A DNA stretch of 8,928 nucleotides from a virus (taxonomy: Duplodnaviria; Heunggongvirae; Uroviricota; Caudoviricetes), in IMG/VR virus record IMGVR_UViG_2657245131_000016. One strand, 5' to 3'. A model generated the notes under the pieces. It was not told where the DNA came from. It ran no database searches and saw only the letters and a list, made by a program, of their open reading frames with translations. Shown here piece after piece: positions 2,391 to 3,402 of the stretch; positions within the stretch are counted from its first letter, which is position 1; the number at the start of each line of letters is the position of its first letter. The position numbers were made by a program, and so were the translations under genes.

Positions 2391-3402
2391 AAAGGTGAAA
2401 ACCGGCAGTTCATCCAGTAAGTCAGTATTGACCTGGCTTGCTGATATGTGCGGTGCCGATTTGTGTGCATACCCGTCTGTATCTGCACTGGCAGAAGTAA
2501 CGGAACTGAACAAAAAGACTGTGCAGGACAGCTTACGACACCTGATGGAGATTGGGTTAATTGTTGATACCGGTGAGAGAAAAGGCAGAACAAAGCAAAT
2601 TGTGGTGTACCGACTTATCGGTGTAGAAGAAAGTGTTGCCGAGCCTGAATACACCCAAAAACGGGAGTCTTTAAAGGTGGGTAAAATTGGTGCTGTTAAT
2701 AAAAACAGTACCGAAAATGGTTATGTTTCAGCACAAAACAGACCCAAAAACAGAACTCTTAGCTGCATGGAAAATAACCAAAGACACCCAAATTTTCCAT
2801 CAAAGACACCCAAAAACGGATCACGGAACCCAAAGGAACCCAAAGATCTAAACCCCACACATAACGCACGCGAGAGTGCTCCGACCAGTGAGCAGGAAGT
2901 TTTGTCGTTACAGGCAGCCCCCCCTGTATTCCTGTATGGCCTGAGCGAACCCATCGGAAAATTCCCGATGAGCGATAGCTGGTATCCGTCACGGGATTTT
3001 CGACGACGGGCTGCGTTGTGGGGGATGGCTTTGCCGGAGACAGAATTTACACCTGCTGAACTTGCCGCCTTCCGGGACTACTGGGCAGCGGAGGGGAAAG
3101 TGTTTACGCAGATTCAGTGGGAGCAGAAATTCGCCCGTCACGTAAATCACGTCAGGGCGCAGGTTAAACCAGTCAGCAAAGGGGTAAACCATGCAGCAGC
3201 ACCAGGTGGCACCGCATCACGGGCAGTTCAGGAAATTCGGGCAGCACGTGAGCAGTGGGAACGTGAAAACGGATTTATCAGCGACGGAAACGGCCTGGAA
3301 GCTGTGGGAACTCATGGGGGTGGTTTATTCGAACCGCTGGACCCAGAAGAACGGGGCCGCACCTTCGAAGCTCTGGATTGCACAGATTGGCGCGATGACT
3401 GA
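2362..3402 (+). CDS. replication initiation protein, O-like (N-terminal winged-helix DNA-binding domain, C-terminal DnaT-like domain)
   Basis: Start placed at the ATG at 2362, which has an AGGGG Shine-Dalgarno 5 nt upstream; the track's 2287 start lacks one. The N-terminus MSIDALRWAKKV...SALAEVTELNKKTVQDSLRHLMEIGLI is typical of prophage initiator helix-turn-helix domains. The C-terminal part (SDSWYPSRDFRRRAALWGMALPETEFTPAELAAFRDYWAAEGKVFTQIQWEQKFARHVNHVRAQ) looks like the DnaT-type domain found in such initiators. A repetitive linker lies between them. Confidence 0.8.
   Translation: MSIDALRWAKKVKTGSSSSKSVLTWLADMCGADLCAYPSVSALAEVTELNKKTVQDSLRHLMEIGLIVDTGERKGRTKQIVVYRLIGVEESVAEPEYTQKRESLKVGKIGAVNKNSTENGYVSAQNRPKNRTLSCMENNQRHPNFPSKTPKNGSRNPKEPKDLNPTHNARESAPTSEQEVLSLQAAPPVFLYGLSEPIGKFPMSDSWYPSRDFRRRAALWGMALPETEFTPAELAAFRDYWAAEGKVFTQIQWEQKFARHVNHVRAQVKPVSKGVNHAAAPGGTASRAVQEIRAAREQWERENGFISDGNGLEAVGTHGGGLFEPLDPEERGRTFEALDCTDWRDD
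2741..2846 (+). repeat. iteron-like direct repeats (ACCCAAA core) inside the O-like gene; candidate replication origin
   Basis: At least five copies: GACCCAAAAAC 2741-2751, AAAGACACCCAAA 2779-2791, AAAGACACCCAAAAAC 2802-2817, and tandem GGAACCCAAA / GAACCCAAAG at 2825-2845. They fall in the linker between the two domains of the initiator, as the lambda origin does within O. Confidence 0.5.

Follow-up and report, generated by a model that had tools for sequence, protein, structure and literature searches.

A repeat array inside the O-like initiator gene of an Escherichia coli prophage probably supplies the iterons of a lambda-type replication origin

In phage lambda, the origin iterons are placed inside the gene of the initiator protein itself: four annotated iterons are found at nt 349–433 of the O gene, directly after the part coding for the DNA-binding domain, and they fall into codon phases 0, 2, 2 and 1. 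Two iterons beside the AT-rich region suffice for lambda in vitro, the Shiga toxin (Stx) phages 933W and P27 carry six, iteron number being variable, and weakly bound outer iterons are still required for replication (PMC7466680). Brezellec et al. 2017 described a helix-turn-helix (HTH) domain of the HTH_36 type in lambda O as well as in DopC, a protein composed of HTH_36 and DnaT_C and paired with a lambda-P-derived protein (PMC5509034). Here, we analyzed a stretch of 8928 bp from the virus record IMGVR_UViG_2657245131_000016 (Caudoviricetes), referred to in its full length as the window, which contains an O-like initiator gene followed by a lambda-P-like gene. An earlier reading of the sequence alone (the sequence-only reading) had pointed to ACCCAAA repeats within the O-like gene and proposed them as the replication origin of a prophage. 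Our analysis makes it likely that the array at about 2651–2845 represents the iteron part of a lambda-type origin, located in the linker-coding region of the prophage's own initiator gene. The origin would be lambda-type in function and architecture, and the initiator is not of the lambda O family by Pfam. The initiator rather appears to belong to a family that is widespread among temperate phages infecting beta- and gamma-proteobacteria, in which it takes the 'O' position and whose members all contain an array of this kind at the equivalent site.

The exact heptamer ACCCAAA occurs six times in the window, always on the plus strand (2653, 2742, 2786, 2808, 2828 and 2838), and all six copies fall within 2653–2844, where two further plus-strand copies with one mismatch are present (2710 and 2776). 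In shuffled windows, the heptamer was found 1.57 times on average, counting both strands, and only one of 200 shuffles reached six copies; from these shuffles, the chance of finding six copies within 192 nt of one strand at the background rate is estimated at roughly 1e-12. Longer repeat families are present as well, namely AAnACACCCAAAAACGG at 2648, 2737 and 2803 and CAAAGACACCCAAA at 2779, 2801 and 2831. Within the gene, the six heptamers start at offsets 292, 381, 425, 447, 467 and 477, corresponding to codon phases 0, 2, 1, 2, 1 and 2, which means that all three phases are used. The sequence-only reading had listed at least five repeats at 2741–2846, among them a 10-bp tandem pair, and had placed them in an inter-domain linker coding for a Pro/Lys/Asn-rich peptide. 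Five copies are indeed located in that span and cluster beyond the shuffles, Tandem Repeats Finder recovered the tandem pair as GGAACCCAAA x2.1 at 2825–2845, and the open reading frame (ORF), the domain matches and the structure model agree with the position in the linker, whose encoded peptide is indeed rich in Pro, Lys and Asn. Two details had to be amended: the array begins at about 2651, so that its best full-length copy (2653) lies upstream of the proposed span, and ACCCAAA, although a real repeat, makes up no more than the left arm and A-tract of a dyad of about 17 bp.

The complete unit, as derived from the family of related loci, has the consensus GT(C/A)CC(A/G)AAAACGG(G/T)AC, an imperfect dyad with an A-tract at its centre and the invariant core CC[AG]AAAACGG. 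We set up a scoring matrix from 54 sites of 13 related loci, leaving out the window itself, and obtained four best matches in the window, all of them in the linker and on the plus strand, with scores of 24.6, 21.4, 17.7 and 11.7 bits, compared to a null maximum of 9.0 bits on average and 16.9 bits at the highest. Strict copies of the core start at 2655 and 2810, two more copies contain one mismatch, and none is found elsewhere in the 8.9 kb. The four matches were designated I1 to I4 in the order of their positions (Table 1). I1 is the best dyad of the window (ACACCC / GGGAGT, 5/6), reads TQKR in phase 0 and is conserved in position in the relatives from Edwardsiella, Serratia and Kluyvera; the right arms of the other window sites are weaker. 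The core of I4 is invariant in five genera. In I2, other E. coli alleles have C at 2718 and thereby a canonical core. From its alignment with the canonical iteron GATCCCAAAAACGGTACGGT of an Enterobacter relative (locus L086), we read the segment following I1 as a probable decayed iteron. The variant site at 2784 is in a 22-bp register with I3 and I4, and with its ACCCAAA copy at 2786 (ACACCCAAATTTTCC) it is similar to the AAATTT-centred palindromes ACCCAAATTTGGGT of phage AB1 and GTCCCAAATTTGGGAC of Bcep176. The copies at 2828 and 2838 lack the CGG arm and may be half sites of the left arm or a flanking element rich in A. Successive sites are spaced by 56, 33, 44, 22, 20 and 10 bp, all approximately multiples of 11, and four sites share one 22-bp register.

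Palindromic units of this kind might also act as mRNA hairpins that influence translation or stability of the O/P message, an explanation to which we give hardly any credence. Full units can form a short stem, and the single-strand fold of 2640–2870 is somewhat more stable than those of shuffled sequences (z −2.5). However, this stability is mostly due to the perfect inverted repeat at 2767–2800, which dominates the fold, the half sites cannot pair, and a search of Rfam gave no match within the array. Moreover, the helical phasing of about 11 bp and the covariation of the repeats with the DNA-binding domain described below point to recognition of duplex DNA.

Table 1. Features of the repeat array, the initiator gene and its neighbours in the window
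Feature	Position	Strand	Basis and remarks
Putative iteron I1 ACACCCAAAAACGGGAGT	2651–2668	+	Canonical core; 24.6 bits (site 2652–2668), top match
Putative decayed iteron GTGGGTAAAATTGGTGCTGT	2677–2696	+	Alignment with GATCCCAAAAACGGTACGGT of Enterobacter L086
Putative iteron I2 GTACCGAAAATGGTTAT	2708–2724	+	11.7 bits, fourth-best match; T for C in invariant core
Putative iteron I3 GACCCAAAAACAGAACT	2741–2757	+	17.7 bits; CGG>CAG at 2752
Variant site ACACCCAAATTTTCCAT	2784–2800	+	Left arm and AAATTT centre, degenerate right arm
Putative iteron I4 ACACCCAAAAACGGATCA	2806–2823	+	Canonical core; 21.4 bits (site 2807–2823); most conserved site
10-bp tandem pair GGAACCCAAA x2.1	2825–2845	+	Tandem Repeats Finder; without CGG arm
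Perfect 9-nt inverted repeat ATGGAAAAT / ATTTTCCAT, 16-nt loop	2767–2800		Repeat search
Stretch of lowest duplex stability (highest AT content) in the initiator gene	2670–2761		Nearest-neighbour stability z 1.8 vs. window; GC 0.33–0.38
Junction block AAAGATCTAAACCCCACACAT	2842–2862	+	Contains GATC, encodes KDLNPTH
O-like initiator gene, 346 amino acids (aa)	2362–3402	+	ORF; Pfam DnaT 61 bits, HTH_36 20.9 bits; RefSeq WP_000020556.1
Winged-helix domain coding part, aa 1–90	2362–2631	+	AlphaFold predicted local distance difference test (pLDDT) 89–97, H-H-H-H-E-E
DnaT-like single-stranded DNA (ssDNA)-binding domain coding part, aa 194–270	2941–3171	+	Pfam PF17948 E 9e-17
Lambda-P-like helicase-loader gene	3191–3856	+	Pfam Phage_lambda_P E 9.5e-17, 61.7 bits vs. 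cut-off 26; RefSeq WP_000139485.1
DicA-like repressor gene	1144–1551	−	
Cro-like gene	1628–1855		
YdaT-like gene	1839–2390		

Relatives containing the N-terminal domain were found in Edwardsiella phage EPP-1, in genomes of Scandinavium, Enterobacter, Kluyvera, Plesiomonas, Serratia, Reinekea and Yersinia and in metagenomic phage contigs, and further ones in the phages phiV10, Her (Vibrio), AB1 (Acinetobacter) and Bcep176 (Burkholderia); the loci of distant homologues were found with an alignment of four N-terminal sequences. A scan of viral contigs yielded only near-identical E. coli copies, which were used for population analysis and not for divergence. In the early operons of temperate phages, the relatives are found at the 'O' position, preceded by repressor, cro or cII genes, and the replication genes recognisable downstream in their loci are P-like or DnaB-like. 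In all relatives with the N-terminal domain, repeats follow directly 3' of the winged-helix coding part. Over 21 loci from phages of beta- and gamma-proteobacteria, CC[AG]AAAACGG is present 80 times in the 281-bp linker and only three times elsewhere on both strands, representing an approximately 1000-fold enrichment in the linker. A comparison with related phages had been suggested as a check by the sequence-only reading, and its outcome is that the iteron core recurs in the equivalent linker of most of these loci. The linker cores are always on the coding strand and are distributed over the codon phases as 59, 19 and 2, with the same DNA being read as PKNG/TENG in one phase and as TQKR/SQKR in another. 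One DNA word used in several codon phases implies that the constraint acts on the DNA and not on the peptide, and together with the constant orientation and the dyad symmetry, this suggests that the sites are read by the initiator as duplex DNA. The core is invariant from Burkholderia, Vibrio and Acinetobacter to E. coli, with a surrounding peptide that cannot be aligned, and the initiators bearing it (from phages of Burkholderia, Vibrio, Acinetobacter, Yersinia, Edwardsiella and E. coli) are only 38–48% identical. Among five genera, 26 of the 71 third-codon positions in the linker are invariant versus 17 of the 90 in the winged helix.

The same data bear on the idea that the repeats are a mere by-product of a low-complexity Pro/Lys/Asn linker, having arisen by slippage or duplication and being kept for flexibility, with no role for the DNA. 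The peptide is disordered and compositionally biased, a 10-bp tandem duplication is present, and the number of units varies by indels among the relatives, all of which would fit such an origin of the repeats. However, one DNA word occurs in two to three phases encoding different peptides, its core remains invariant across distant hosts, the units show dyad symmetry, a single orientation and the strong linker enrichment, and the proven iterons of lambda behave alike. We therefore regard the by-product explanation as very unlikely.

The array is co-inherited with the winged helix at the N-terminus of the protein, not with the DnaT-like domain at its C-terminus. In EPP-1, an N-terminal domain shared with the window and five core sites are combined with a different C-terminal domain; conversely, YdaU of Rac-SA53 and the corresponding protein of TL-2011b share the C-terminal domain from about 2842 onwards, have another N-terminal domain and are devoid of such repeats. 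The most divergent winged helix (locus L095, 37% identical), in which the near-invariant KTV and DTGERKG residues are altered, is accompanied by a different repeat, AGTCTCACCATG x4, at the equivalent place and in three phases; repeat and winged helix thus seem to covary. Of all 21-mers in the gene, the junction block following the last repeats shows the highest nucleotide conservation across five genera (90% invariant). It recurs in ydaU of Rac-SA53 despite the different N-terminal domain, and the homology to Rac-SA53 ydaU and TL-2011b starts there. We interpret it as a putative recombination junction between a module consisting of the N-terminal domain and the iterons and a second module containing the C-terminal domain.

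The protein product of the O-like gene, named 'DnaT-like ssDNA-binding domain-containing protein' in RefSeq (WP_000020556.1), consists of an N-terminal winged helix, a linker and a DnaT-like C-terminal domain, with aa 92–172 disordered in the AlphaFold model. The winged helix at aa 1–90 is the presumed iteron reader. Searching its model against the PDB with Foldseek resulted in generic winged-helix regulators and no replication initiator among the matches; the modelled fold would support DNA binding, not membership in a family. Aligning the N-terminal profile with a lambda O profile matched the HTH and wing (lambda O aa 71–121) with a probability of 82.6% and an E value of 9.6e-6, and a single-sequence hhalign comparison with lambda O was uninformative (probability 3%). 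Homologues of the window protein at 38–67% identity carry precomputed PF13730 (HTH_36) matches. In the C-terminal domain, PF17948 matches aa 201–267 with 61 bits versus a cut-off of 25, and the DnaT chains 6aep and 4ou6 of the PDB match with E values of about 1e-19.

The reading frame of the P-like gene is open from 3188, and the ATG at 3191 would yield a protein of 221 aa whose gene would overlap the last 212 nt of the O-like gene in a different frame. Rac-SA53 and three further genera (loci L002 and L085–L088) share the conserved overlap peptide (ATETAWKLWELMG..SNRWTQKNGA..LWIAQIG.MTE), where the Pfam P match starts; the tail of the O-like protein is conserved too, ending in a TDW-type motif as in lambda O. 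We consider 3188–3402 a probable dual-coding overlap of about 70 codons, and the P-like protein starting at 3395 in RefSeq (153 aa) is probably too short.

The locus invites a direct comparison with lambda, whose annotated iterons match the array in phase behaviour and, as the sequence-only reading had claimed, in their position inside the initiator gene. The iterons of both are imperfect inverted repeats around an A-tract with a CCC-AAAAC-GGG design (TCCCTCAAAACGAGGGA in lambda, GTCCCAAAAACGGGAC in the window), and in both the array and the N-terminal domain form one exchangeable module, the C-terminal domain and its partner another. As in lambda, a P-family gene is present downstream, and the DNA-binding domains are remotely homologous (PMC5509034). 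Unlike lambda O, the window protein is outside the Pfam family Phage_rep_O, and its C-terminal domain is DnaT-like instead of corresponding to the lambda O C-terminus. While lambda contains four tight 18-19-mers, the window sites occupy a span of about 190 bp, their spacings being irregular multiples of about 11 bp, and the window does not contain a clear 40-bp AT-rich tract 3' of the array. The Stx-phage origins are those of lambdoid prophages from the same Shiga toxin-producing E. coli (STEC) hosts and offer a precedent for arrays of mixed strong and weak sites, but they employ true lambda-O-family proteins and lambda-like iterons, whereas the window represents another initiator family with another consensus.

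The initiators of the phiV10/epsilon15 type (HTH plus DnaT), which come with a P-like protein and have homologues in Vibrio, Acinetobacter, Burkholderia and Edwardsiella phages, show the same architecture, core and place of the repeats as the window. Both phiV10 and Vibrio phage Her contain six CC[AG]AAAACGG copies as regular tandem full sites with 24-bp spacing, in contrast to the irregular arrangement of two cores plus half sites in the window. The DopC/DopE pair has the same architecture as the O-like/P-like pair of the window, which would be the phage form that kept the array; DopC itself is a domesticated chromosomal gene for which no iteron-like sequences were reported, and replication does not start there (PMC5509034). 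Among plasmid origins, those of pPS10 (RepA), R6K (pi), F (RepE) and P1 (RepA) resemble the window in their direct repeats, a helical phasing of about 22 bp and a winged-helix initiator, and differ in that the iterons are outside the rep gene and usually accompanied by DnaA boxes and AT-rich 13-mers. Plasmid Rep proteins contain two winged-helix domains and bind iterons as monomers. Rac of K-12, with oriJ, was considered as an example of the same origin type and rejected, because the N-terminus of K-12 YdaU is DUF1376.

The annotation of the phiV10-type proteins does not go beyond primosomal or replication initiation protein, and none of these records contains an annotated origin. Our literature search retrieved nothing on the origins of phiV10, epsilon15 or Bcep176, neither iterons nor proteins of this type are mentioned in the papers on the Eru replication regions of Stx phages, and a literal search for the motif returned only papillomavirus E2 sites and primers. 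Iterons and origins of this widely shared initiator family therefore seem to be undescribed so far. The match to E2 arises from the family consensus (e.g., GTACCGAAAACGGTAC at gene nt 415–430 of locus L098), which contains ACCGAAAACGGT, a papillomavirus E2 binding site (ACCG-N4-CGGT); this identity is presumably a coincidence or a convergence on A-tract-bent palindromes.

By analogy to lambda O, initiation would begin with derepression of the rightward operon (cro, ydaT-like, O-like and P-like genes), after which dimers of the winged helix would occupy the phased sites, and the bound initiator might bend or wrap the DNA into an O-some-like complex (PMC7466680). The neighbouring DNA would then be destabilised, either at 2670–2761 or at the A-rich tandem and the junction block (2825–2862), and the DnaT-like domain may contact the resulting ssDNA and/or the lambda-P-like protein, which would deliver the host DnaB. 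The segment 2670–2761 is a weak candidate for the unwinding region, and the DNA 3' of I4 has a GC content of 45–55% with a strong A/C skew. A-rich tandems of 10–12 bp were also observed directly after the last iteron in phiV10 (L103, gene nt ~410–440, ATAACCAGTCAT x3), Bcep176 (L106, gene nt ~442–480, GGAACAGTAGA x4) and AB1 (L104, gene nt ~375–400, CAACCAAAGAAA x2), as at 2825–2845 of the window (GGAACCCAAA x2). They may serve as an unwinding or ssDNA-binding element analogous to the 13-mers of oriC.

To judge the state of this particular copy, its prophage background has to be considered. Chromosomal prophage DNA from E. coli O121 and O103 STEC strains matches the window at 100% identity. 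The prophage at ompW in the O157:H7 strain 1130 shows 100% identity to 2362–2865, and prophage Sp9 of strain Sakai is integrated at yciD, which we take to be an older name of ompW. On these grounds, the window prophage is of the 'PPompW' or Sp9 type. PPompW prophages have all been described as defective, with well-conserved early regions (PMC8112680), and Sp9 was reported to generate circular and packaged DNA spontaneously, without induction by mitomycin C (PMC2669165). Our population set of this region consisted of 84 E. coli sequences falling into 36 haplotypes.

Several observations count against the origin reading or against the function of this copy and are collected here. Regarding the protein, the HTH_36 match (PF13730) reaches only 20.9 bits and stays below the gathering cut-off of 25, and no match to Phage_rep_O (PF04492) was found in a Pfam search at E<=0.01. 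Regarding the DNA, no DnaA box (TTWTNCACA) is present anywhere in the window, and a strong AT-rich unwinding element, for which the sequence-only reading had proposed to look next to the array, was sought and not found, the best candidate (z 1.8) being within the array and not beside it. The window contains two strict cores, compared to 0–6 and mostly 3–6 in the relatives. Position 2752 is A in the window haplotype alone and G in the other 35, which breaks the invariant CGG of I3, and within the region, variation among the E. coli sequences peaks in the middle of the array, implying that not all sites are strongly constrained. Further downstream, the window prophage copy has lost the Q, lysis and morphogenesis regions that the O157:H7 copy still contains, and the amount of Sp9 DNA did not increase upon addition of mitomycin C (PMC2669165). 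Finally, no binding or replication experiments on this initiator family were found in the searchable literature.

The array may also be a genuine origin type of the family whose copy in the window is a decaying, non-functional relic within a domesticated defective prophage, a state of affairs that we find doubtful. In favour of a relic, there are the mutated I3, the T in place of the invariant C in I2, the further decayed unit, the low number of canonical cores, the truncated downstream region with its DUF968 fragment, terminase fragment and IS3, the defective nature of the PPompW group (PMC8112680) and the lacking response of circular Sp9 DNA to mitomycin C (PMC2669165). Conversely, I1 and I4 are canonical, and I4 with its flanks (2802–2838) shows no polymorphism in any of the 84 sequences; degenerate sites are common in the relatives too. 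Both the O-like and the P-like ORF are intact, and hundreds of genomes contain them in identical form; moreover, Sp9 does yield circular and packaged DNA (PMC2669165). Because both ORFs are intact and two iterons beside an AT-rich region are enough for lambda in vitro (PMC7466680), it seems plausible that the window copy is functional in replication. According to the sequence-only reading, an intact origin together with intact O-like and P-like genes would amount to a working module; the two genes are intact, but the array is not entirely so, given the CGG>CAG change in I3 that is unique to the window haplotype, nor is the prophage as a whole, which is degraded downstream. The central proposal of that reading, iterons of a lambda-style origin in the O-like linker with the P-like gene next to it, is supported by the DNA-level conservation in several phases, the co-inheritance with the N-terminal domain, the deviating repeat of L095 and lambda as a control.

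A possible natural example of the isolated module is the plasmid pZ1323HEC0067-2 of E. coli Z1323HEC0067 (NZ_CP148379.1; L107/L109), deposited as a circular record of 8461 bp. It contains genes for the repressor, cro, ydaT, the O-like and the P-like protein together with cargo genes (DUF5677, AAA-ATPase, HNH, hokD and rem), and no other replication gene. The record and PPompW segments in the chromosomes of other strains (L110 2501–10961) are colinear at 99.9%, and the segment was not found in the chromosome of the strain itself. The chromosomal counterpart is bounded by an imperfect 17-bp direct repeat, GCTGAG(A/T)AACACCGTGC. These features suggest a natural minicircle similar to lambda-dv that replicates autonomously. 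On the opposite side, we found no chromosome with the matching empty (deletion) junction, and the circle could be an assembly artefact.

Even if the sites are bound by the initiator, they might mainly serve control or interference, either as an autoregulatory roadblock, for titration (handcuffing) or for the exclusion of phages with the same core. Their position inside the transcribed O gene and upstream of P would suit such a function, the core is also present in phiV10, a phage of the same O157:H7 hosts, and lambda iteron fragments are known to inhibit phages using the lambda replication system (PMC3349717). However, the loci did not reveal any other candidate origin, the motif is nearly absent elsewhere in about 107 kb, the equivalent sites of lambda are the origin, and the minicircle has no other replication function. 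A primary role in control or interference thus appears improbable to us, and the origin remains the preferred reading. Classical lambdoid origins diversify until they are specific for their replicon, unlike the invariant CC[AG]AAAACGG core, which is common to the resident defective prophages of the PPompW/Sp9 type and to phiV10 in the same O157:H7 hosts. With such deep conservation, phages might cross-talk or interfere with one another. As a speculation of rather low probability, such origins may be a cross-reacting 'common currency', with the array and initiator of a defective prophage titrating or excluding relatives, or being fired by them in trans, so that interference or amplification, and not phage propagation, would be the reason for its retention. 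If incoming relatives fired the origin in trans, adjacent cargo such as paa could be amplified, or lambda-dv-like minicircles such as pZ1323HEC0067-2 could be formed. If the origin fires on derepression, neighbouring genes could be amplified in situ, mobilisation of a defective prophage could be favoured, and autonomous minicircles as well as interference with related incoming phages could follow. The combination of a winged helix followed by phased CC[AG]AAAACGG dyads in several codon phases would also provide a signature for finding origins in a large unannotated initiator family, useful for phage annotation, replicon typing and the engineering of phages and plasmids. The array would further be an example of a disordered protein linker doubling as a cis-acting DNA element.

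The segment coding for the N-terminal domain and the array is present in 909 of 5426 complete E. coli genomes (~17%) at an identity of at least 95%, the carriers including O157:H7, O121, O103, O111 and the enteropathogenic E. coli (EPEC) strain E2348/69. It adjoins virulence cargo such as paa, and effector loci are located further along in intact copies. K-12 Qin shares the dicA/dicC immunity region with the window and contains no O or P genes, which confirms the earlier statement that the replication module sets this prophage apart from the Qin remnant. Downstream of the P-like gene (end at 3856), the order continues with a DUF1627 gene, paa, hokD, a shortened DUF968 gene, a terminase fragment and IS3. 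The DUF968 gene (7561–8553) is truncated at its C-terminus and abuts the terminase fragment (8408–8806), IS3 being next in the matching genomes. Rfam detected a sok antitoxin RNA beside hokD (6431–6580, 103.9 bits) and, at 8870–8928, the 5' part of an isrC-like Hfq-binding small RNA that is cut by the end of the window. On the other side of the locus, a 23-bp tandem repeat (AAGCTTCTTGTGTAGAAAAACCT x1.9) is located at 1044–1087, just past the 3' end of the DicA-like repressor gene.

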